Shown here piece by piece: positions 1-13,323 of a DNA stretch of 13,323 nt (its first letter is position 1; every line of letters begins with the position of its first letter). The notes beneath the pieces were generated by a model. That model had not been told where the DNA came from. It did not search any database and worked only from the letters and a program-made list of their open reading frames with translations. The translations under genes were made by a program, and so were the position numbers. Source of the stretch: a virus (taxonomy: Duplodnaviria; Heunggongvirae; Uroviricota; Caudoviricetes); IMG/VR virus record IMGVR_UViG_2565956709_000005, positions 1-13,323 of that record; one strand, 5' to 3'.

Positions 1-1131
1 TCAAATGACCAGTTTTTTCCATTCCTTACCGCGTGCGTCGTTGTAAATATCGGTCATTTTTTGATTCGAATGGCCTAGCAAAATTTTGGTATCAACCCCC
101 TGCTCTCTGAACAATCGCTCTGATAAAGATCTCTGCTCATGGAAAGAGGGTGGGGTGCCATTAGCACGCCAGTTGTAATCCACAGAATCCCGGGCTTTTT
201 TAAATGCAACGGTTAATGTTGCTGGCTTAACCATCCCGCCGCGCTTAGCTGTCCCTTTCGCGTGATGGTGGTGCAATAGCCACGGACTAAGAACGCAATC
301 GCGGCAGGATGACACTACATCATCCAGGGTGAGATTTAATTTATCGCAACGCAGAGCCAGAGGGATGGCAATCCGGGTTCCTGTTTTTTGCTGTTCGACA
401 TGAAGATAACCATCCCGGATATCCGAAAATTGCATTTTGCAAATATCTGAAAGGCGCTGGCCTGTCATCAGTGCCAGCAGCATACCGCGCTGTAAAAAGT
501 AACCATCCTTTTCCGCTGCGTTATAAATCATCATCCACTCATCAAAAGTCAGTCGCTGTCTTGATATCCGCACCTGCGGTTTTTTTGCCGATTCTGCAGG
601 GTTAAAGCCTGGCGGGACATCGCCCGTTTGCTGAGCTTCCCGGAAAACATCGATCAGTACTTTCCTGAAAATTTGTCCCATTCTGTTATGTCCTCTGGCC
701 TTGTACTCTTCCAGTACTGATACCACATCTTTTACGGTTATGGCATCTAACGGTCTGGTGCCAAAACGTTCATCAAATACCCTGAGAGGGGCCGCTTTCT
801 GTTTCAGCGTGTTGAGTTTGATCTCGCCGTTTTCATATCTTTCCTGTTGAATTTTTCTGTAATTATTCAGAAAAATGGTAACGGTTGATGAACCGCCGGT
901 ATCACTAATAATTTTCTCCTGCAGACTGAGCATTTGTTCCATTTGCTGCCGGGCAAGACGGCTGTTCGCTTCTGCTGCAATAGTTTCTGCCAGTTTCTGG
1001 TCAATACTGCCGAGACCGTGATTTTTGCCTGTTATGGGATGCCTGTAACGCCAGTAAACTTTGTTATTTCTTTTGTCAAAATACGGAGATAATCCCGGAA
1101 CATCGGTTTTATATTTTCGCGGGCGCGCCAT
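1..1131 (-). CDS. int: Phage tyrosine integrase (lambda Int-like site-specific recombinase), 376 aa, complete; stop codon at positions 1-3
   Basis: Full-length ORF in track. C-terminus ...LLGHSNQKMTDIYNDARGKEWKKLVI resembles the lambda Int catalytic tail (LLGH...Y motif) as I recall it. Overlaps an excisionase-like gene by 23 nt. Family assignment from established knowledge, not a search. Confidence 0.88.
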   Translation of the reverse strand: MARPRKYKTDVPGLSPYFDKRNNKVYWRYRHPITGKNHGLGSIDQKLAETIAAEANSRLARQQMEQMLSLQEKIISDTGGSSTVTIFLNNYRKIQQERYENGEIKLNTLKQKAAPLRVFDERFGTRPLDAITVKDVVSVLEEYKARGHNRMGQIFRKVLIDVFREAQQTGDVPPGFNPAESAKKPQVRISRQRLTFDEWMMIYNAAEKDGYFLQRGMLLALMTGQRLSDICKMQFSDIRDGYLHVEQQKTGTRIAIPLALRCDKLNLTLDDVVSSCRDCVLSPWLLHHHHAKGTAKRGGMVKPATLTVAFKKARDSVDYNWRANGTPPSFHEQRSLSERLFREQGVDTKILLGHSNQKMTDIYNDARGKEWKKLVI

Positions 1132-1421: not shown

Positions 1422-3893
1422 TTAAAAATCAGCCTGATTCGGGATCAGTTTTTGCCAGATAACTGAAACGTATTTTGCCTGGTAACGGGCGTCATCAAGT
1501 GCATTATGGCGCTCACCTTCGAATGGAATAGCCGTTCTGGCATCGAAGTCTATGGCTTTCCCCAGCTCAACGATTGTGCGTACATCGCGATCGTTGTAGT
1601 AACGCCATGGGCAGGGGATCCCCTGCCGTTCGTATGAACGGCGCAAAATCGTGTTGTCGAAGTTGGCTCCATTTCCCCAGACCTGAACAAAAAATTCGCC
1701 GGAGTTTTCGTCGATAAATTCCCGCAATTGCAGCAGTGCATCATCTAACGGGATTTCATCGGTCAGAATGGCAGATTGCGCCTCCCGTGATTGCTTAAGC
1801 CACCATTTAATGGTGCCACGATCAATGACTCCGCCAGCAGTATCCATATCGATGGTCTTACTAAATTCCGGCCCCATATCTCCGGTTTGCGGATCGAAAA
1901 ATATTGCACCTATTGAGATAAGCGGGGCATCGGGATTTTTTCCCATGGTTTCAAGGTTGATCATCATGTGGTGCCACATTCTGCTGGTGGATGTGATAAC
2001 GTGATGACCGTTCATCGCAATTAAGGGATCTGCCGTCTCGCCAGTTTCACTATCGCTGGCGTGATCCTGAGCGCTACCAGCATTCTCCTTGTGTGGATGT
2101 TCAGCGCCTTCCATTTCCTTCGGATCATTTTCCTGAACTTCAACCTGATTCTCTTCATCGAATGTTTCCTGGTATGTTGCGTCGCCCATTACCGCGCCAC
2201 AATCAGGGCAGTTGCCACCACCGCTTTGACCGCAGGCGGTGCAGACTTTTTCCGGTTCCTGTTGCGCTACTGGCTCAGGTTGTTTCGTTTCTGGCTCGTT
2301 TTGTAACGCATTTGGGCTGTTTTGTTCCGCTTTCTGGCCGTTCTGTTCCGTTTCTTGTTGGTTCTGATTCACTGAATCGCGGGTTTCAATCCCCTTCACC
2401 CATTTCGGATCATTCGGGTCGCTAATCCCTGCAACAAATTCACCACGTGATACAGCAAGCAACTTATTGGCGTCAGGCTGGCTGATATTGGCTGCCTGCA
2501 TAATTTTGTTTACTTCGTCAGCGGTAACTTTTACCGGCTCTGGTTGTGCGATCGTGTCAGATGCACCAGTATTTTGTTGTGAACCTGAGTATGTACTGTT
2601 TTTGCGGGCGAAATATTCTTCTTTCGTGATTTCAGTAGCCCCGGCAGCCAGCGCCTTATCCAGACCAGAAAGTTTGTTTGCGCGACCGTATTTTTCGCCA
2701 TCCTTGTCGGTGAAGAGGAAGTAGAACGGCCCTTCACGCTCTACAGATGGTTCGACTTCCACTTTGCATTCGGTTTTTTCGTTGTCCGGAATTGCCGTTT
2801 CCACTGCATCAGTTTCTGGTACTGGCGACGAGAGAGTATCAGTTGCGCTCTGATTTCTTCCTTCATCTTCAAACACGCCCTTTGTAGTCAGGTATTCAGT
2901 AATGTATTTGTTCAGTGCCACAGGGTCTTTGTGAATGTCGATCGGACGTTCACGGACAAGGCCAAAAATAGTCTGGCGGTCGTAGCGAAGGGCATCAGGC
3001 TGTTTGCGCATTGATGCCGAGATACGCTTCCAGTCTTCGCGGTCGTTGTCGATAACTTCATTTTTTGCCCAGCGATGGATGCTGCCGTCAATGTTTCCGG
3101 CATCCACATCACCAGGCCAGAGAGCGTAGGCCAGTTCGTCATCCAGTGTTTTCCATGTCTGCTTGTATTCGCGATGAATGGCAGCAATGACCGGGCTGAT
3201 TTTTCCTGTTGAATTTTCAGTGTGCTGTTGATTGGTTCTGGCGCGGGCGAGATCAACAACAGACGTGTATTTTCCGGTTTCCTTGCGTTCACCTTCGCGA
3301 CGTTTTTTCCAGATGCGCATCTCTGCCTGAATTTCGGGCCATTTGGCACCAGGCTTACATTTATGCTTAACCCACCCGATGGCATGCAGCTTAAGCTCCG
3401 GATACATGGCGTTAACTTCTGGCATTTTCATCAACGCTTCAACGATATGTCCGTCGAATGTTGCCATGTCTTCCTGCAACAATTCCTGTGCGCTAATAAC
3501 CATATCAACGGTGATGTTTTCACATGTGTCGAACTTAACCATGACAGCGTTCTGTACTTCAGGGGACAGCTTGTCAAAATTGACGTTCATCGGATCGGAT
3601 TCTGGTTCGACCGGAATAAAGGAAGCGGATTCCTCATCCCAGCGGTTTTCCTGCATATATTCAGCATCCCAGGAATCGAGGGCAGGGCGGGGTATACCGG
3701 GTTTATCCTCGCAGACAAGAAATTTATAAGCGCAGTCCTGAGCAGCCGGATAATGTTCCAGGAATTGCCAGTGAAATTTTGCGCGGGCGCGACGTTCATC
3801 ACCGGCTTCAATGGCAGTGGCTACAGCGACGGCACCTTCTTCCTTTATTGCCTGTTCGTCCGGAATGGCGGCGCAAATAAAGACTTTACTCAT
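1422..3893 (-). CDS. Large multidomain exonuclease, RecE / exodeoxyribonuclease VIII-like by position, 823 aa, with C-terminal DnaQ-like (DEDDh-type) 3'-5' exonuclease domain
   Basis: Long ORF with ATG at 3893 and a GAGG about 12 nt upstream. C-terminal ~180 aa carries DnaQ-family-like motifs (...VWGNGANFDNTIL... and ...HNALDDARYQ...). Middle has a Q/E/P-rich low-complexity linker and a CxxC-x9-CxxC zinc-ribbon-like motif (CTACGQSGGGNCPDCG). Segment LLAVSRGEFVAGISDPNDPKWVKG matches my unverified recollection of E. coli RecE. Sits where lambdoid phages carry exo/recE, directly upstream of xis-int. Confidence 0.6.
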   Translation of the reverse strand: MSKVFICAAIPDEQAIKEEGAVAVATAIEAGDERRARAKFHWQFLEHYPAAQDCAYKFLVCEDKPGIPRPALDSWDAEYMQENRWDEESASFIPVEPESDPMNVNFDKLSPEVQNAVMVKFDTCENITVDMVISAQELLQEDMATFDGHIVEALMKMPEVNAMYPELKLHAIGWVKHKCKPGAKWPEIQAEMRIWKKRREGERKETGKYTSVVDLARARTNQQHTENSTGKISPVIAAIHREYKQTWKTLDDELAYALWPGDVDAGNIDGSIHRWAKNEVIDNDREDWKRISASMRKQPDALRYDRQTIFGLVRERPIDIHKDPVALNKYITEYLTTKGVFEDEGRNQSATDTLSSPVPETDAVETAIPDNEKTECKVEVEPSVEREGPFYFLFTDKDGEKYGRANKLSGLDKALAAGATEITKEEYFARKNSTYSGSQQNTGASDTIAQPEPVKVTADEVNKIMQAANISQPDANKLLAVSRGEFVAGISDPNDPKWVKGIETRDSVNQNQQETEQNGQKAEQNSPNALQNEPETKQPEPVAQQEPEKVCTACGQSGGGNCPDCGAVMGDATYQETFDEENQVEVQENDPKEMEGAEHPHKENAGSAQDHASDSETGETADPLIAMNGHHVITSTSRMWHHMMINLETMGKNPDAPLISIGAIFFDPQTGDMGPEFSKTIDMDTAGGVIDRGTIKWWLKQSREAQSAILTDEIPLDDALLQLREFIDENSGEFFVQVWGNGANFDNTILRRSYERQGIPCPWRYYNDRDVRTIVELGKAIDFDARTAIPFEGERHNALDDARYQAKYVSVIWQKLIPNQADF

Positions 3894-4362: not shown

Positions 4363-4927
4363 TATCGCGTCCTCAACAATGAATTTTGTGATGCGGTGCC
4401 TGGTGCCTCCAGGTGACGTTAACCAGTTAACAATTAACGCCGGATACAGAGAATCCACCCATAACACTGTTTTTGGTTTTAACTGTTCCGCGTGCGCTCA
4501 GCCGCATTCACCACATCACAAAATTCACTTTAAAAAGGGCGGCAGAGCAGTCACGGAGTAAAACTGATACCGCCAAACGTCACCAGAAAATTGATAACAG
4601 AGGGCGTTGCAGCGGAGTTGTCACTTAAGCGTATGGTCAACCTGACAACCCGGTGTCCTCAACGGAGGAAGGAATAACCCCGCCATACTTACCGCCGCGC
4701 CATTTCGCGGAGTGCCACAACCGGAAGCGCACGGTCGAACTAAATTTAACGACACCGTACAGAGAGACCAATTTCGCCGTGCGCTTTCGCTTTATGCCCT
4801 GACTTTTCAGGGACATATCCTTTCAGTAAACTGTCAGTGCCGGATGTTCACCCGTGTCCGGCGCACGCACTCCACCTGACCCGTGGAGAACTCCTTAATT
4901 ACCAACCTTAGCTTCGTTGGTTAGCTA

Positions 4928-5146: not shown

Positions 5147-5175
5147 ACTGATTCCTCGCGGTGCTGCTTCGCTTA

Positions 5176-5304
5176 TCAGCCGTTAGATTTTGCCGAGCTG
5201 GAAAGCGCCTGTTTAAACTCACTGAAGCTGAGAGCTTCTTCGCCTTCGGCAAGGCCTTCGAAGTATTCTTCGTAAGCCTTTTCCATGATTGTGTCGAAAT
5301 CCAT
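5176..5304 (-). CDS. Small acidic protein, 42 aa from ATG 5304 (56 aa if ATG 5346 is used); absent from the ORF track (below 60 aa)
   Basis: Hand-translated on the minus strand: MDFDTIMEKAYEEYFEGLAEGEEALSFSEFKQALSSSAKSNG. The ATG sits 2 nt after the stop of the upstream 78-aa ORF, with GGTGAG just upstream. Confidence 0.35.
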   Translation of the reverse strand: MDFDTIMEKAYEEYFEGLAEGEEALSFSEFKQALSSSAKSNG

Positions 5305-5305
5305 A

Positions 5306-5542
5306 TCACTCACCTGAGTTTCTTTCCAGCCAGCGACGGGCACCATTTTCGGTTTTAAACGTTTTGCTTTTGGTATACGTCATTGCGGTGAACGTGCCGT
5401 CCTGGTTGGGGAACACGCCACATACCAGAGATTCGCTGTTGCCAAGATCGATAGTATCCATGCTGACCTCATTTCCCCTTAACGCCGGGGGAGCGGAACA
5501 AAAACCTGCTGCATAGTTATTAAAGTTGAACCCTGCCGTCAT
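5306..5542 (-). CDS. First gene of the leftward early operon, 78 aa, unknown function
   Basis: ORF in track. GAGG lies 8 nt upstream of the ATG on the minus strand. About 95 nt downstream of the predicted P_L -10 element. Confidence 0.55.
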   Translation of the reverse strand: MTAGFNFNNYAAGFCSAPPALRGNEVSMDTIDLGNSESLVCGVFPNQDGTFTAMTYTKSKTFKTENGARRWLERNSGE

Positions 5543-5642
5543 GTTCTTACGCCTCGGGCTGGCTACTTAACCCCTGACCACTGCCTGGTAACTCGAGGTA
5601 TTGCCCTGTATTGTGTGGGACGGGATGGGTTGGTATGGGAAA

Positions 5643-5686
5643 ACTATAGGAAATGCCTAATTACTTGTCAATAGGCTATGCCTAAT
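5643..5686 (-). promoter_or_regulatory. Predicted leftward early promoter P_L with two operator sites (O_L)
   Basis: On the minus strand: -35 TTGACA (5671..5666), 17-bp spacer, -10 TATAGT (5648..5643). Two 17-bp dyad sites of the form ATTAGGC-N3-GCCTAAT at 5670-5686 and 5645-5661, centres 25 bp apart. Shares a 23-bp exact inverted repeat with the O_R region. Confidence 0.5.
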
Positions 5687-5779
5687 AATTTGGGCGCGAC
5701 CTAATAGGTGATGGTTTGTGGGAGAGGTAGTAGGAGTTAACTAACGGGAACTAGGAATTTCCCGTCGGACCATATAAGT

Positions 5780-6256
5780 TTAAGTTCCTGTCTTGGTGAT
5801 GTTCTGGCTTTTCCGTTTTGATTCTTGATTTTTCAGATAGTTAGCTACCTTCATTTCCATTGCGGCAATGTAGGCGCGAACGTCATGATCAACCCAACTA
5901 GGCTCCGTAGCATTTCCAGATAAGAGGAAAGCCACAATTGCTCTTTTTTCATCAGAGGCGGCTTGATAAAGGCTGTTTATGTCTAAAAGTTCACTTTTTG
6001 TATCTGAAGTGGATGGGGTTGGTATGGGGTATTCGTTAAGCCCCCAATGCTCTGGACCAACCACATCAGAAAAGAAACGCCATAGTTCTGGAAGTTTGTC
6101 TTTACTTATCGAACCTTTCTTAATCCAGTCATGGATTGATGGTGGTTGGACTTTGAAATGACGTGCGATTTCCGCCTTTGATTTGACGGCTCCTGATGCA
6201 ATTTTTTTGTTAATGGCCTGCTCAATCGCTCGGCCTAAGTCTTTACCACTAAGCAT
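5780..6256 (-). CDS. racR: Prophage repressor with HTH DNA-binding domain, RacR-like, 158 aa
   Basis: ORF in track, divergent from a cro/ydaS-like gene. HTH-like segment SKAEIARHFKVQPPSIHDWIKKG. Resemblance to E. coli Rac RacR (also 158 aa) is from memory, not a search. Confidence 0.75.
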   Translation of the reverse strand: MLSGKDLGRAIEQAINKKIASGAVKSKAEIARHFKVQPPSIHDWIKKGSISKDKLPELWRFFSDVVGPEHWGLNEYPIPTPSTSDTKSELLDINSLYQAASDEKRAIVAFLLSGNATEPSWVDHDVRAYIAAMEMKVANYLKNQESKRKSQNITKTGT

Positions 6257-6283
6257 TGCTTAATAGTCTCCTATGCGCATCGC

Positions 6284-6353
6284 GTTAGGCAATCCCTACT
6301 CTCGATGTATTAGGCATAGCCTATTGACAATTGCATTAGGCTAAGCCTAATAT
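6284..6353 (+). promoter_or_regulatory. Predicted rightward early promoter P_R with operator sites (O_R) between the repressor and cro-like genes
   Basis: -35 TTGACA (6324-6329), 18-bp spacer, -10 TAATAT (6348-6353). Perfect 17-bp palindrome ATTAGGCTAAGCCTAAT at 6335-6351, near-palindrome ATTAGGCATAGCCTATT at 6309-6325, and a degenerate third site at 6284-6300. Site centres are 25-26 bp apart. Confidence 0.55.
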
Positions 6354-6380
6354 TGTTGCGTGTTTTTTGGAGTTCATTCG

Positions 6381-6704
6381 ATGAAAAAAGATAACTATTC
6401 ATTCAAACGAGCTTGTGCTGTTGTCGGTGGGCAATCAGCAATGGCTAGGCTTTTAGGTGTATCTCCTCCAAGCGTAAATCAATGGATCAAAGGTGTACGT
6501 CAGTTGCCTGCTGAGAGATGTCCTGCGATTGAACGAGCAACAAAAGGTGGTGTCCTGTGTGAAGAACTTCGTCCTGATGTTGATTGGACATACTTACGAC
6601 GCTCGTCATGTTATTCGCAGAATATGTCGATGAAGCAACCAAATGACGAAAACGATCATACCCGAAGCATCAAGAGGCAAATGATTCATGAAAATCAAAC
6701 ATGA
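6381..6704 (+). CDS. ydaS: Cro-like HTH regulator, YdaS-like, 107 aa from ATG 6381
   Basis: GGAG lies 9 nt upstream of ATG 6381 (track starts at GTG 6360). HTH segment GGQSAMARLLGVSPPSVNQWIKG. Start matches my recollection of Rac YdaS (MKK.NYSFK.ACAVVGGQSAMARLLGV...), unverified. Confidence 0.7.
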   Translation: MKKDNYSFKRACAVVGGQSAMARLLGVSPPSVNQWIKGVRQLPAERCPAIERATKGGVLCEELRPDVDWTYLRRSSCYSQNMSMKQPNDENDHTRSIKRQMIHENQT

Positions 6705-7135: not shown

Positions 7136-8098
7136 ATGAGCAGCAAGCTTCATGGTCTTGTCTGGGAAGGGTGCGCCTTCACCGGCATGATCTTATCCAG
7201 GGTGGCGGTTATGGCCCGTCTTGCAGACTACAGCAATGACGAGGGCGTGTCATGGCCTGCCATTGAAACTATCCGGCGTCAGATCGGTGCAAGAAGTGAA
7301 TCCACAGTGAAATCGGCTATTGCAGAACTGGCGAAAGAGGGCTGGCTGACGAAGGAAGAGCGTAAGGTCGGTGGGCGTAATGTAAGCAATATCTATCGAC
7401 TTAATGTGGAAAAACTCGAAGCAGCTGCGGCGGCGGCGCGTGAGTCATATAAACCGAAAAGAAAAATTAGCCCGGCAAAAAATGACCCGTTAACAGTTGA
7501 CCCGTCAAATATTGACCCCTCAACGGTTGACCCGTCAAATTTTGATGGATCAACTGTTGATAAAAAACTGCCGATTAGGGGGGCGATGATTGACCCCGAT
7601 CCGTCAGTATTAAAACCTGATCCGTCAGATAAAAGATCTTCTTGTCCGGACGCTTCGCAACCGGACCCGCAGACGGCTGAACAGGATTTTTTAACCCGAC
7701 ACCCTGACGCGGTTGTGTTCAGTGCGAAAAAACGCCAGTGGGGAAGTCAGGAAGATTTGGTGTGCGCACAGTGGATCTGGGGACGAATCGTGAGTCTTTA
7801 CGAGCAGGCGGCCAGCTATGATGGCGAGATCACTAGACCGAAAGAACCCAACTGGACAGCATGGGCCAATGACGTTCGCACAATGCGGATGCTGGATGGC
7901 AGAACTCACAGACAAATTTGTGAAATGTTTGGGCGTCTCCAGCGGGATTCGTTCTGGGTAAAAAACATCATGAGTCCGGCAAAACTCCGGGAAAAATGGG
8001 ATGAACTGGTTATCCGCCTGGGGCGTTCGCCTGCGCAGCGTTGCGTGAATCACATTTCTGAACCGGACACTGAAATTCCGCCGGGCTTCAGGGGGTAA
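7136..8098 (+). CDS. Phage replication initiation protein (N-terminal winged-helix HTH, O-like), 320 aa from ATG 7136, with ori iterons inside the coding sequence
   Basis: N-terminal HTH-like region (...WPAIETIRRQIGARSESTVKSAIAELAKEGWL...). Central DP(S/L)N/TVD peptide repeats are encoded by the DNA iterons. Position after the cro/cII-like genes matches lambda O. ATG 7136 is preceded by a G-rich stretch; the track's GTG 7121 is the alternative start. Confidence 0.7.
   Translation: MSSKLHGLVWEGCAFTGMILSRVAVMARLADYSNDEGVSWPAIETIRRQIGARSESTVKSAIAELAKEGWLTKEERKVGGRNVSNIYRLNVEKLEAAAAAARESYKPKRKISPAKNDPLTVDPSNIDPSTVDPSNFDGSTVDKKLPIRGAMIDPDPSVLKPDPSDKRSSCPDASQPDPQTAEQDFLTRHPDAVVFSAKKRQWGSQEDLVCAQWIWGRIVSLYEQAASYDGEITRPKEPNWTAWANDVRTMRMLDGRTHRQICEMFGRLQRDSFWVKNIMSPAKLREKWDELVIRLGRSPAQRCVNHISEPDTEIPPGFRG
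7482..7553. repeat. Candidate replication origin: five 12-bp dyad iterons (TTGACCCGTCAA-like) at 15-bp phasing
   Basis: Copies at 7482 (ATGACCCGTTAA), 7497 (TTGACCCGTCAA), 7512 (TTGACCCCTCAA), 7527 (TTGACCCGTCAA) and 7542 (TTGATGGATCAA), each TTGAC-NN-GTCAA-like. Followed by an A/T-rich stretch (7555-7570) and more TGACCCC / CCGTCAG repeats to about 7628. Confidence 0.6.
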
Positions 8099-8138
8099 GT
8101 GTTAATTTCTGGTCATGAGGTAATTTTCAGGAGGGCTT

Positions 8139-8561
8139 GTGGCAAAAGTTTTTACACAAGAAGAGCGGGAAAAAATTAAAGGGCAGGTTGTTGAACTCGT
8201 ACGCCAGAGTGGGCGCGAGACGTTACGACAACTGGAAACTAAAACTGGGGCAACAAGATATCTGATGAGCGTTCTGGCCAGAGAGCTGGTTGCCAGCGGC
8301 GATGTATACAACTCCGGCTACGGGTTATTCCCCTCTGAACAGGCGCGTAAGGACTGGCAAAACGCCCGCAAAAAACTCTCGAGGGCAAAGGTGAAGAAAC
8401 CTGCTGTGGTTGATCCGGACCTTATCTGGTCATCACCTGACGGAGAAATACGTCGCTACGACAGTCGCCTAAACATAATCTGTCGCGAGTGCCGGAAGAG
8501 TGAAGCTATGCAGCGTGTACTGGCTTTCTATCAGGGTAATTTTCAGGAGGCGGTACTGTGA
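8139..8561 (+). CDS. Hypothetical protein, 140 aa, GTG start
   Basis: AGGAGG lies 4 nt upstream of GTG 8139. The 16-nt ribosome-binding-site module GGTAATTTTCAGGAGG occurs just upstream and again at the gene's 3' end. Confidence 0.55.
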   Translation: MAKVFTQEEREKIKGQVVELVRQSGRETLRQLETKTGATRYLMSVLARELVASGDVYNSGYGLFPSEQARKDWQNARKKLSRAKVKKPAVVDPDLIWSSPDGEIRRYDSRLNIICRECRKSEAMQRVLAFYQGNFQEAVL

Positions 8562-8618
8562 GTGAAATTAGCTATCAGGCTTCAATTACCGCTGGCATTC
8601 GCATCAAAGGAGAGGAGC

Positions 8619-8975
8619 ATGGAAATAAAACCAGAGGATGAGTTAAGCAATATCGTTTTATTTCCGGTAAAAGAGGATGACCCTCGTAATCAGGTTAATT
8701 TTCTTTATGAGCCATCGGAAAGACCATATTGTCATCACGCCTCTGTCCGGGTTGACGAAAAAGAGCGTCAGGTCCGCTGTAAAATCTGCGGTGCAGTTGT
8801 GGAGCCATTTGACTGGATGCTCTCTGTGGCGAAAAGAGAAACCAGACTGGCAGATGATGTAAGGCTCTTGCGTCAAGAGGAGCGGGAAAGGCGAAAAAAT
8901 ATAGAAAAGCTAATTCAGATTGAGCGTAACGCGAAAGCGCGGATACGCAGGGCGACAAAATCCAGAACTGAATAA
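8619..8975 (+). CDS. Hypothetical zinc-ribbon-like protein, 118 aa from ATG 8619 (track version starts at GTG 8562)
   Basis: Strong ribosome-binding site AAGGAGAGGAG directly upstream of ATG 8619. Cys/His cluster YCHHASV...CKICG. Basic coiled-coil-like C-terminus. Confidence 0.55.
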   Translation: MEIKPEDELSNIVLFPVKEDDPRNQVNFLYEPSERPYCHHASVRVDEKERQVRCKICGAVVEPFDWMLSVAKRETRLADDVRLLRQEERERRKNIEKLIQIERNAKARIRRATKSRTE

Positions 8976-9068
8976 TTAAATTTAGCTCTGTTAAAAATTT
9001 AATCCTTAACCGGAGGGATTTCTGCACCCTCAGAACATCAGGAGGCCGCCCGAAAGGGCGGTAGTTAA

Positions 9069-9251
9069 ATGCGAAAGTTTAAAATAATTATTGAAACGGG
9101 AATAGCCGGTGGAGATTTCGAGGATGAATTCGAAGTGGATGATGATGCGACGCCTGATGAAATACATGACGAAGCAAAAGATATTTTCTTTAACTACTGC
9201 AATTACTCATATCACGAAATAAAAGACGAAGAGGAAGAACAAAATGGCTGA
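9069..9251 (+). CDS. Very acidic small protein, 60 aa (20 Asp/Glu against 5 Lys/Arg), unknown function
   Basis: ORF in track. AGGAGG (9040-9045), then a GC hairpin (9046-9061), then ATG 9069. Composition counted by hand. Confidence 0.5.
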   Translation: MRKFKIIIETGIAGGDFEDEFEVDDDATPDEIHDEAKDIFFNYCNYSYHEIKDEEEEQNG

Positions 9252-9420
9252 TTTTGGTTCAACTAAATACAACGTCAGTTTTGAAGAATGGCATGAACTG
9301 TTAATGGACTATGCAGAGTTACGTGGTGGCAGTGCTGCTGATGCTGAAGCATGGCGTGATGATTATGAAGCAGGAAAAACTCCGGTCGAAGCATATTGTG
9401 ATGAGTGGGGCGATGAATGA
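9244..9420 (+). CDS. Acidic small protein, 58 aa (16 Asp/Glu against 4 Lys/Arg); absent from the ORF track
   Basis: Hand-translated: MADFGSTKYNVSFEEWHELLMDYAELRGGSAADAEAWRDDYEAGKTPVEAYCDEWGDE. Start overlaps the upstream stop (ATGGCTGA) and its stop overlaps the next ATG (ATGA). Confidence 0.45.
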   Translation: MADFGSTKYNVSFEEWHELLMDYAELRGGSAADAEAWRDDYEAGKTPVEAYCDEWGDE

Positions 9421-10166: not shown

Positions 10167-10221
10167 GACTGCGGGTGCTTGAGGCTATCTGTCTCAGGCA
10201 TGAACACCAAAAGGCAGATAG

Positions 10222-10295
10222 AGAAAAGCCCCAGTTAACATTACGCGTCCTGCAAGACGCTTAACATTAATCTGAGGCCATATCTATGCTCTACA
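10222..10295 (-). ncRNA. sok: Predicted Sok-like antisense RNA covering the mok ribosome-binding site and start codon
   Basis: Inferred from hok-locus architecture. Minus-strand terminator-like structure (hairpin GCGUC...GACGC nested in a GGCCUCAG/CUGGGGCU stem, then UUUUCUCU) ends near 10222. Weak candidate promoter on the minus strand (-35 TTGCCT 10329..10324, -10 TAACCT 10306..10301). Boundaries approximate. Confidence 0.35.
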
Positions 10296-10498
10296 CACGT
10301 AGGTTAGCCTCTTACGTGCCGAAAGGCAAGGAGAAGCAGGCTATGAAGCAGCAAAAGGCGATGCTAATCGCCCTGATCGTCATCTGTTTAACCGTCATAG
10401 TGACGGCACTGGTAACGAGGAAAGACCTCTGCGAGGTACGAATCCGAACCGGCCAGACGGAGGTCGCTGTCTTCACAGCTTACGAACCTGAGGAGTAA
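10286..10498 (+). CDS. mok: Mok-like reading frame (in-frame N-terminal extension of Hok), 70 aa
   Basis: ORF in track. Starts 19 codons upstream of hok in the same frame, an arrangement I recall for MokC/HokC. GAGG lies 8 nt upstream of ATG 10286. Confidence 0.6.
   Translation: MLYTRRLASYVPKGKEKQAMKQQKAMLIALIVICLTVIVTALVTRKDLCEVRIRTGQTEVAVFTAYEPEE
10343..10498 (+). CDS. hok: Hok/Gef-family type I toxin (small membrane-depolarising peptide), 51 aa, HokD/RelF-like
   Basis: Sequence MKQQKAMLIALIVICLTVIVTALVTRKDLCEVRIRTGQTEVAVFTAYEPEE has the Hok/Gef signature (N-terminal transmembrane helix, ...LVTRKDLCEV.IRTG..EVA.F.AYE...). AAGGAG lies 10 nt upstream. Confidence 0.88.
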   Translation: MKQQKAMLIALIVICLTVIVTALVTRKDLCEVRIRTGQTEVAVFTAYEPEE

Positions 10499-10938: not shown

Positions 10939-11997
10939 GTGCGGGTATTACTTCGATCTGTTCCGGTACCGGAACTTGGGCTGGTGGTCCTTAAGCCTGG
11001 TCGTGAATCCATGCAGGTATTCCGCAGCGGTCGTGTACTGGTGGAGCCGGAACCGAAAAGCATGCGCGGTCTGCCGTCCGGAGTCGTTCCTGCCGTTCGC
11101 CAGCCATTGGCGGAGGATAAATCACTACTGCCATTTTTCAGCGATGAGCGGGTGATTCGTGCTGCTGGCGGTGCTGGTGCGCTGTCTGACTGGCTGTTAC
11201 GCCACGTTAAATCCTGCCAGTGGCCTCATGGTGACTATCATCACAGTGAAATCGTCATACATCGTTACGGTACCGGCGCGATGGTGTTGTGCTGGCACTG
11301 CGACAACCAGCTGCGTGACCAGACCTCCGAATCACTCGGGCAACTTGCTCATCAAAACCTGTCAGCATGGATGATTGACGTCATACGCCATGCAGTGAAT
11401 GGCACGCAGGAGCGGGAATTATCGCTGGCTGAATTGTGCTGCTGGGCTTCTGTAAATGATGTAGTGGATGCCATGACCGAAAATATGGCGCGTCGAATCC
11501 TGAAGCTTCCGGGTGAAAAAATCCGCTCAGTATACCGCGAGAGCGACATCGTACCGGGAGAGCAGACCGCCATCAGCATACTGAAGCAGCGCACAAAAAA
11601 TATTGCGCCGTTGCCTCACGCCCACCAGCAACAGAATCCACCACAGGAAAAGACGGTGGTCAGCATTGCCGTTGATCCGGAGTCACCGGCTCAGTATCTC
11701 CAGCGCCAGAAACCACAACGGGAAGAGATGCCTGTATACACGCGCTGGGTAAAAACGCAGAAATGCATGACGTGTGGCAATCAGGCAGATGATCCGCATC
11801 ACATCATTGGTCATGGACTGGGAGGGATGGGAACAAAGGCTGATGATTTGTTTGTTATTCCGCTGTGCCGTAAATGCCATAGCGAACTACACGCCGGGGT
11901 AAAAGATTTTGAAGAAAAACACGGCAGCCAGCTGTTGTTGCTGATTCGTTTTTTAATGCACGCGAGAAATTCGGGTGTCCTGAAGTGGAAAGCATGA
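10939..11997 (+). CDS. Nin-region protein with C-terminal HNH-type zinc-finger nuclease motif (DUF968-like), 352 aa
   Basis: C-terminus CMTCGNQADDPHHIIGHGLGGMG...LCRKCHSELH has a CxxC...HH...CxxCH...H layout. GGAGG lies 6 nt upstream of GTG 10939. Sits directly upstream of rusA. DUF968 label is from memory. Confidence 0.65.
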   Translation: MRVLLRSVPVPELGLVVLKPGRESMQVFRSGRVLVEPEPKSMRGLPSGVVPAVRQPLAEDKSLLPFFSDERVIRAAGGAGALSDWLLRHVKSCQWPHGDYHHSEIVIHRYGTGAMVLCWHCDNQLRDQTSESLGQLAHQNLSAWMIDVIRHAVNGTQERELSLAELCCWASVNDVVDAMTENMARRILKLPGEKIRSVYRESDIVPGEQTAISILKQRTKNIAPLPHAHQQQNPPQEKTVVSIAVDPESPAQYLQRQKPQREEMPVYTRWVKTQKCMTCGNQADDPHHIIGHGLGGMGTKADDLFVIPLCRKCHSELHAGVKDFEEKHGSQLLLLIRFLMHARNSGVLKWKA

Positions 11998-12363
11998 ATG
12001 ACTGAACGCATAGAATTTGTTTTGCCTTACCCGCCAACGGTGAACACTTACTGGCGACGTCGTGGCAGCACATATTTTGTATCAAAAGCCGGTGAGCGTT
12101 ATCGCCGTGATGTGGCGCTTATTGTTCGCCAGCAGCGGCTGAAATTAAACCTGTCCGGAAGGCTGGCGATAAAGATTATTGCAGAGCCACCGGATAAACG
12201 TCGTCGTGACCTGGACAATATCCTGAAAGCACCACTGGATGCGCTGACGCATGCCGGACTTCTCATAGACGACGAGCAGTTTGATGAAATCAATATTGTG
12301 CGCGGTCAGCGCGTTCCTGGGGGGCGGCTGGGCGTGAAGATTTACAAAATTGAGAGTGAGTGA
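11998..12363 (+). CDS. rusA: RusA Holliday-junction resolvase, 121 aa
   Basis: Motifs ...LPYPPTVNTYWRR... and ...PDKRRRDLDNILKAPLDAL... match the RusA family as I know it. Start overlaps the upstream stop (TGAATG). Confidence 0.88.
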   Translation: MTERIEFVLPYPPTVNTYWRRRGSTYFVSKAGERYRRDVALIVRQQRLKLNLSGRLAIKIIAEPPDKRRRDLDNILKAPLDALTHAGLLIDDEQFDEINIVRGQRVPGGRLGVKIYKIESE

Positions 12364-12917
12364 TCGTAAATATGATATATCCGGAAATTACAGGCAAAAG
12401 CGGCGAGCATTTACGTCTAAAAACGCTGGAAGCCGTCTGGATCCAGGGGAAATTACGGATGTGGGGGCGTTGGTCGTACATAGGTGGTGGCAAACCAGGA
12501 AATATGTTCAATCAGTTGCTGGCATCCAAAACACTTACAAAAACTGCGATCAATGAAGCTCTGCGCAGAATAAAAAAATCAGGGATTGATAAAACTGAGC
12601 TGGAAGCGTTTTTGCGTGAGATGATCAACAGCAAGCAAAAGAGCGGGCTGGCTTATTGTACTGATGCCGAGGCGTTATGTATCGATCGGGTAATTAGTAA
12701 AGTGTTGGCAGAGCATCCGGGATTGATTTGTATCCTCCGACAAAGATATGAAGGGCTGGGAATGAGCAAGCTGAAAATGGCAGAACAGTTAAAAAAGAAT
12801 CACCCTGACTGGAGCCTGAAAACTTGTAGAAATCGCATTGATGTTTGGTTGGCGATGGCTGAAACCATGCTTTTCCTTCCAATGTGCGTGGCACTTCGGT
12901 GCTTTTCTGATAACTGA
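12360..12917 (+). CDS. Putative late-gene antiterminator (Q-like) by position, 185 aa; start may be ATG 12372 rather than GTG 12360
   Basis: ORF in track. Follows rusA as Q does in lambdoid phages and is followed by a promoter-like sequence. No Q-specific motif recognised, so the function is positional inference. Confidence 0.4.
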   Translation: MIVNMIYPEITGKSGEHLRLKTLEAVWIQGKLRMWGRWSYIGGGKPGNMFNQLLASKTLTKTAINEALRRIKKSGIDKTELEAFLREMINSKQKSGLAYCTDAEALCIDRVISKVLAEHPGLICILRQRYEGLGMSKLKMAEQLKKNHPDWSLKTCRNRIDVWLAMAETMLFLPMCVALRCFSDN

Positions 12918-12992
12918 TGATAGAAGTGCATCAGCTATCAATCTTGTTGACGTTCATCAAGGTCTGGACAATACTTACGTTAAGTTCCAACA

Positions 12993-13323
12993 GGTAATGG
13001 TGCCAACTTACTGATTTAGTGTATGATGGTGTTTTTGAGGTGCTCCCGTGGCTTCCATCTCCATCAGTTGTCCCTCCTGCTCAGCTACTGAAGGCGTGGT
13101 GCGTAACGGTAAAAGTACTGCCGGACATCAGCGCTATCTCTGCTCTCACTGCCGTAAAACATGGCAACTGCAGTTCACTTACACCGCTTCTCAACCCGGT
13201 ACACACCAGAAAATCATTGATATGGCCATGAATGGTGTTGGATGCCGGGCAACCGCCCGCATTATGGGCGTTGGCCTCAACACGATTTTACGTCACTTAA
13301 AAAACTCAGGCCGCAGTCGGTAA
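12993..13323 (+). mobile_element. IS1 insertion sequence, left end and insA, truncated by the window edge
   Basis: Terminal sequence GGTAATGGTGCCAACTTACTGAT at 12993 resembles the IS1 inverted repeat as recalled, followed by a complete insA ORF and the IS1 A6C frameshift motif (13299-13305). Confidence 0.88.
13048..13323 (+). CDS. insA: IS1 InsA (transposition regulator; N-terminal part of the InsAB' frameshift transposase), 91 aa
   Basis: Sequence [43 protein letters not shown]... is recognisable as IS1 InsA. Slippery A AAA AAC lies near the 3' end. Confidence 0.9.

Follow-up and report, generated by a model that had tools for sequence, protein, structure and literature searches.

An IS1 element downstream of the antiterminator gene of a Rac/EHEC-type lambdoid prophage has probably silenced an AbiL-like operon by entering its 5′ untranslated region, with the operon forming a module between the Q gene and its presumed target cassette and with Q control probably unaffected. 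The window, that is the whole 13,323-nt stretch of DNA analysed, constitutes the left arm of this prophage. A sequence-only reading of the window had located the insertion where the late promoter and Q-utilisation site are expected and had proposed that the late genes are probably uncoupled from Q, which would render the prophage defective. The insertion itself is a routine IS1 hop in one Escherichia coli draft genome, and the result guards against the wrong annotation of a prophage crippled at its late promoter. As by-products, the analysis provides a candidate for the late promoter and target of DUF1133-type antiterminators, which are found upstream of stx2a in some STEC, and a defence module that brings its conserved promoter with it and is lodged between Q and the late promoter.

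The window opens with the genes for an integrase (1-1131, minus strand) and a RecE-like exonuclease of 823 aa (1422-3893, minus strand), while towards its right end a DUF968 gene (10939-11997) is followed by the RusA gene (11998-12363), which lies between the DUF968 and DUF1133 genes. The exact 823-aa RecE-like sequence is on record for one contig only, scaffold KI538666.1; the neighbouring genes are common to hundreds of assemblies. The early region encodes a DicF RNA (4537-4588, minus strand, 76.7 bits), which in relatives is adjoined by a dicB-like gene, and a sok antitoxin RNA (10173-10348, plus strand, 117 bits) overlaps a hok-family open reading frame further downstream. Both RNAs are standard content of Rac/Qin-type prophages.

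The gene that precedes the insertion (12372-12917, plus strand) encodes 181 aa from an ATG codon, or 185 aa from a GTG codon at 12360. The earlier designation of the 185-aa reading frame as Q-like holds, as the protein is, judged by sequence and predicted structure, a full-length and intact Q-type antiterminator homologue of the Q21 family. Its primary Pfam family is DUF1133 (2e-98), and it scores 32.4 bits against PF06530 (cut-off 26), the Q21/Q933W family as defined in bioRxiv 10.1101/651190, with profile positions 19-116 of 118 covered. A search of the PDB with the single sequence retrieved nothing at E<1, but a profile of 25 DUF1133 proteins matched Q21 in the PDB entries 6P18 and 6JNX (E=8.7e-5), collinearly and over both protein halves. 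The ten best Foldseek matches of the AlphaFold model were all Q21 (probability 0.99-1.0, TM 0.41-0.55), which is taken as weak support only, the model having a pLDDT of 56 with the N-terminal half below 50 because of a shallow alignment. Compared with 24 relatives the protein is of full length, with differences confined to a variable C-terminal tail.

Gene order points in the same direction. The DUF1133 gene is situated after the nin/rusA region and before the lysis genes, DUF1133 homologues occupy the Q slot in isolated phages, where depositors named them antitermination protein Q, and in a Stx2a prophage the Q slot is likewise taken by a DUF1133 homologue. A list of Stx phages contains the entry 'DUF1133 (Q antiterminator HHPred)' (Pinto et al., 2021, PMC8136144). 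With Q of phage 21 and Q933W, the DUF1133 protein thus shares detectable similarity in sequence and fold (PF06530; 6P18, 6JNX), a place in the gene order behind rusA and ahead of the lysis genes, and a candidate cassette of promoter, short leader and terminator downstream. It differs in that it represents a separate subfamily of about 180 aa versus 162 aa with only about 18% identity, in that its DNA target is a candidate, and in that 1.8 kb of defence module here stand between the gene and this presumed target. The 3′ tail of the gene, which is divergent, contains a weak terminator-like hairpin of 5 pairs only (GGCACTTCGGTGCT followed by TTTTCT, 12890-12903, plus strand, corresponding to 10519-10532 of the relative L003), and the fold of the region is not significant (z = -1.35).

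The inserted element is an ordinary, already known IS1, and nothing in the element itself is unusual. Members of the IS1 family are 768 bp long, express insA and insAB′ with a programmed -1 frameshift at an A6C motif and create a 9-bp target duplication. The window comprises the left 331 bp (12993-13323, plus strand), which begin with the terminal inverted repeat at 12993 (GGTAATGGTGCCAACTTACTG...; GGTAATGGTGCC) after a 75-bp spacer (12918-12992) behind the stop of the Q-like gene at 12917, precisely where the sequence-only reading had placed them, and which match full 768-bp copies from many E. coli genomes with 100% identity (e.g. L015, 701-1468). The reading frame of insA (13048-13323) runs to the end of the window and encodes the domains Zn_ribbon_InsA (PF03811, 4.3e-21) and HTH_Tnp_IS1 (PF12759, 4.7e-31); the A6C frameshift motif AAAAAAC at its end (13299-13305) is intact, as had been noted. 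The left terminal repeat GGTAATGGTGCCAACTTACTGAT (12993-13015) and the reverse complement of the right end, GGTAATGACTCCAACTTACTGAT (L102), are identical at 20 of 23 positions. While terminal repeats, the zinc ribbon and helix-turn-helix of insA, the A6C motif and the 9-bp duplication are those of the IS1 family, what sets this assembly apart is the insertion site alone; the central part of the copy is unassembled.

Uninterrupted relatives are identical to the window up to exactly position 12992 and then continue with TATGGAAGATAAGAATG..., and the left junction of IS1 is therefore fixed to a single base. The other end of the element and the expected duplication of 8-9 bp were recovered from the source scaffold, KI538666.1 of GCA_000494935.1. 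There, GTTCCAACA is followed by the left 356 bp of IS1, 275 N and the right 218 bp of IS1, in which a DDE_Tnp_IS1 fragment is called and which end in GTTGGAGTCATTACC; beyond this right end stand a second GTTCCAACA and then TATGGAAGATAAGA and an ATG codon, so that after the second 9-mer the scaffold continues as the uninterrupted target, TATGGAAGATAAGAATG.... The left copy of the duplication is located at 12984-12992. As the 9-mer occurs on both sides of IS1 and once only in the empty target site of uninterrupted relatives, IS1 arrived here by simple insertion, duplicating 9 bp of the target. The two halves of the element are joined by scaffolding only, across the 275 N (L102:271-545), which stand where a 768-bp IS1 needs about 194 bp, the gap estimate being about 81 bp too long; that the window stops with insA is probably due to this gap inside IS1. 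The left junction is absent from complete E. coli genomes, exact-pattern scans of genome, viral and metagenome contig collections did not retrieve it, and a context survey by the DUF1133 protein delivered uninterrupted contexts only.

What the element has interrupted is evident from these relatives. Between one of them, L009, and the window there is a difference of 1 nt in 10.6 kb, and another, L005, is identical over 7.4 kb. In these two and 15 other loci, the stop of the Q-like gene is followed by 89 bp, a gene for a 396-aa ATPase and an overlapping gene for a 177-aa protein; after a gap of 283 bp come a 65-aa open reading frame, a DNA methylase, three tRNAs, iraM and nanS-p, and finally holin, lysozyme, Rz and terminase. 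The genes to be expected after IS1, which had been left to an extension of the sequence, are thus the AbiL pair and then the late genes in the collinear relatives, and in the source scaffold the 396-aa abiLi gene is called directly after IS1. With PADLOC, the ATPase pair matches AbiLi (4.3e-25) and, weakly, AbiLii (1.7e-3). An ATPase gene followed by a small second gene with a one-base overlap is the arrangement of AbiLi/AbiLii systems, and this two-gene arrangement is kept in all contexts seen; the second protein matches AbiLii only weakly, and the anti-phage role of the pair is putative.

Morons are self-contained inserted gene units with their own promoter, and as such the AbiL-like pair behaves, being mobile between unrelated contexts. 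Five contexts of abiLi homologues, with 58-100% protein identity, were compared over the 60 nt before the ATG codon: the DUF1133 prophage of E. coli, a chromosomal site outside any prophage, a prophage of Citrobacter koseri, where the module follows a lambda-type Q, a contig on which its neighbour is a giant gene with a MuF domain, and a site in E. coli next to the integrase of a prophage. In the four contexts other than that of the window, the homologues of the 396-aa ATPase show 89, 79, 72 and 58% protein identity. The sequence-only reading had correctly recorded a promoter-like site with a -35 element TTGACG (12947-12952) and a -10-like element AATACT (12970-12975); the two are 17 nt apart. 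Its consensus match of 9/12 is at chance level, as 9 such sites were counted versus 9.5 expected in shuffled sequences. Nonetheless, TTGACG is invariant in all five contexts and followed by a 17-nt spacer of varying sequence, positions 2, 3, 4 and 6 of the -10 element are invariant (AATACT/GATACT/GATAAT), and before the ATG codon TTCCAA and a purine-rich ribosome-binding site are kept throughout. The similarity ends a few bases before the -35 element, with the sequence further upstream unrelated between contexts, two of which lie outside any Q or late-gene region. Because of this conservation across unrelated contexts, the site at 12947-12975 (plus strand) is, despite its chance-level match, very probably a real promoter, namely that of the AbiL-like operon.

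From the position of the -10 element, transcription of abiL would start around 12982, and the predicted transcript would then begin with the 5′ UTR element AAGTTCCAA (12982-12990, plus strand), which contains the TTCCAA invariant in the five-context alignment. IS1 sits between the promoter and the ribosome-binding site, at about +10 of this transcript and 15 nt before the ATG codon. No Rfam family reached threshold in the region of the insertion.

Homologues of the module elsewhere illustrate this mobility. In the C. koseri prophage (L097/L098:2050-4721), the module, with 79% identity and the same promoter, immediately follows a lambda-type Q gene (PF03589) and precedes the holin genes. Prophages whose Q proteins belong to unrelated families thus receive this AbiL-like module at the same place, the junction between Q and the late promoter. 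At L105:2395-5535, the same promoter accompanies an AbiL-like pair that is more distant (58% identity) and lies on the margin of a further Rac-like prophage, with the integrase on one side and an operon for a host transporter on the other.

If the promoter next to the insertion belongs to the defence operon, the late promoter has to be sought elsewhere. Downstream of the DUF1133 stop codon, a GCTTCGCAAAGCT box is present in 93 of the 93 loci with downstream sequence, which represent 22 sequence variants. In 76 loci, which belong to diverged subfamilies, the box follows the stop codon at 19, 26, 33, 44 or 114 nt, and only in the 17 loci with the AbiL module, the lineage to which the window belongs, does this distance amount to 1,897 nt. 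The box is part of a cassette that consists of TTG(ATT/CTT/CAA/TAT), 17 nt, TT(C/G)AAT, 8 nt, the GCTTCGCAAAGCT box and gTAyCGCGAGGCGA, with a strong intrinsic terminator 55-75 nt further on. Examples are L003:12386-12517, L013:5551-5662 and L101:2567-2672, each with the promoter-like site, the box, a leader hairpin and the strong terminator; leader and terminator fold beyond shuffled controls (z = -6.2 and -4.6). The -10 element of the candidate late promoter (TTCAAT/TTGAAT) is without the usual A at position 2, and in one subfamily (L046 class) the Q stop codon TGA lies inside the -35 element. The cassette is followed by the 65-aa open reading frame, the methylase, tRNAs, stx2 in L013, nanS-p and the lysis genes, and in the near-identical relatives the complete lysis and terminase genes stand behind it, beyond the IS1 target.

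The 3′ end of the ancestral Q gene appears to mark where the module entered. In the lineage of the window, the string aaaatgtcTTGAtttttt, which forms the Q 3′ end in the subfamily with its stop codon inside the -35 element, survives beside the cassette, and the AbiL module therefore apparently inserted into the last codons of Q. At L003:12375-12395, aaaatgtcttgatttttt beside the cassette looks like a remnant of this ancestral end.

The cassette, whose layout matches that of the textbook Q cassette, is put forward as the candidate late promoter and candidate target of Q in the DUF1133 subfamily, and it is apparently undescribed; as a Q-utilisation site it would contain putative Q-binding and pause elements. 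A Stx2a phage with a different, 126-aa Q possesses another promoter and leader and the same sequence from the terminator onward, a pattern as would be expected if the Q gene and its target were exchanged as one module. A locus with a Q-like gene, a promoter behind it and a short, terminated transcript (about 77 nt), beyond which read-through enters the downstream genes, has been described as antQ-isrK of Gifsy-1, which resembles the DUF1133 cassette in layout (PMC4825925). Homology of the cassette to isrK was rejected: L003 reaches 21.6 bits versus a gathering score of 50, the match is absent in L013 and L101, and it sits among many terminator-driven matches, while no Rfam family reached threshold over the cassette in L003, L013 and L101. 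In the Stx2a prophage of E. coli RM9387 (L013:5013-8816), which carries a DUF1133-type Q, the order is DUF968, RusA, DUF1133, cassette, 65-aa open reading frame, methylase, tRNAs and stx2AB.

These observations bear directly on the proposal that TTGACG-17-AATACT is the late promoter PR′ with the Q-utilisation site, such that IS1 parts the late genes from Q and the prophage is defective. The site does follow the Q-like gene directly, as PR′ does in lambda, phage 21 and most DUF1133 prophages, and with the insertion at about +10 IS1 would have entered where a pause element could lie. However, abiLi homologues outside prophage late regions are preceded by this very promoter and 5′ UTR, in an uninterrupted relative no terminator occurs between 12947-12975 and the abiLi ATG codon about 25 nt downstream, and the site lacks the GCTTCGCAAAGCT box found with every DUF1133 gene examined. 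That box, together with a promoter and a terminator, is present 1.9 kb downstream in relatives, with the ancestral Q 3′ end still beside it. The proposal is thus largely refuted, and we regard it as very improbable; in particular, relatives with 0-1 nt of difference to the window have late genes and a candidate late promoter with terminator elsewhere, the cassette being 1,897 nt past the Q stop, which speaks against an uncoupling of the late genes from Q. That the IS1 insertion makes the prophage defective finds no support.

It is also conceivable that the insertion is an artefact or the trace of a rearrangement, with IS1 halves from different copies wrongly joined across the gap. The run of N in mid-element and its estimated length, 81 bp too long for a 768-bp IS1, would fit such an origin, but each junction is found in contiguous sequence with an identical 9-mer, and the two flanks joined give exactly the uninterrupted target, which is the mark of one simple insertion and leaves this explanation extremely unlikely. 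More weight, though still little, is due to IS1 as a neutral passenger, with AbiL either already inactive or still expressed by read-through from IS1 or the upstream early operon. IS1 has the same orientation as abiL, whereby read-through of insAB′ could enter the operon, and the IS66, IS21 and IS3 elements in sibling prophages suggest relaxed selection; against this, the native promoter is kept down to 58% protein identity, which argues for its importance, IS1 insertions are strongly polar, and a scan for outward promoters at the right IS1 junction, where a hybrid site could arise, returned no site that passed. A harmless insertion is accordingly judged unlikely.

The preferred explanation, judged likely, remains the disruption of the AbiL operon. 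A known IS1 isoform has entered, by simple transposition and with the 9-bp duplication GTTCCAACA, the predicted short 5′ untranslated region of an AbiL-like abortive-infection operon with two genes. This operon is a self-contained module with a promoter of its own and is located, in this prophage lineage, between the DUF1133 Q gene and the cassette on which Q presumably acts. Cut off from its own promoter, the defence operon would be silenced or strongly reduced; loss or reduction of AbiL expression is to be expected because of the polarity of IS1 and the lack of an outward promoter at the right junction. The Q gene, being intact, would act in trans, and in relatives some 1.9 kb already separate it from the candidate late promoter with its leader and terminator, a distance to which the extra 768 bp would add little. 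Q control of the lysis and morphogenesis genes would probably continue unaffected. Judged from the relatives, with the scaffold itself read to the start of abiLi, the source strain is likely to possess an intact late region.

The more general proposal that the cassette is the Q-utilisation site of the DUF1133 branch, the junction a recurrent landing site of AbiL and IS1 a natural defence knock-out is advanced tentatively, with slightly less than even confidence. If true, the DUF1133 Q-utilisation cassette would control stx2a in some STEC strains.

Sibling copies of the prophage contain other insertion sequences, IS66 in one (L005:611-3226) and IS21 in another (L006:3816-5782). In L010, two sets of transposase genes with rve domains, IS3-like, are found at 5167-6536 and 8038-9266, one of which splits the DUF968 gene. 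The prophage lineage to which the window belongs collects IS elements.
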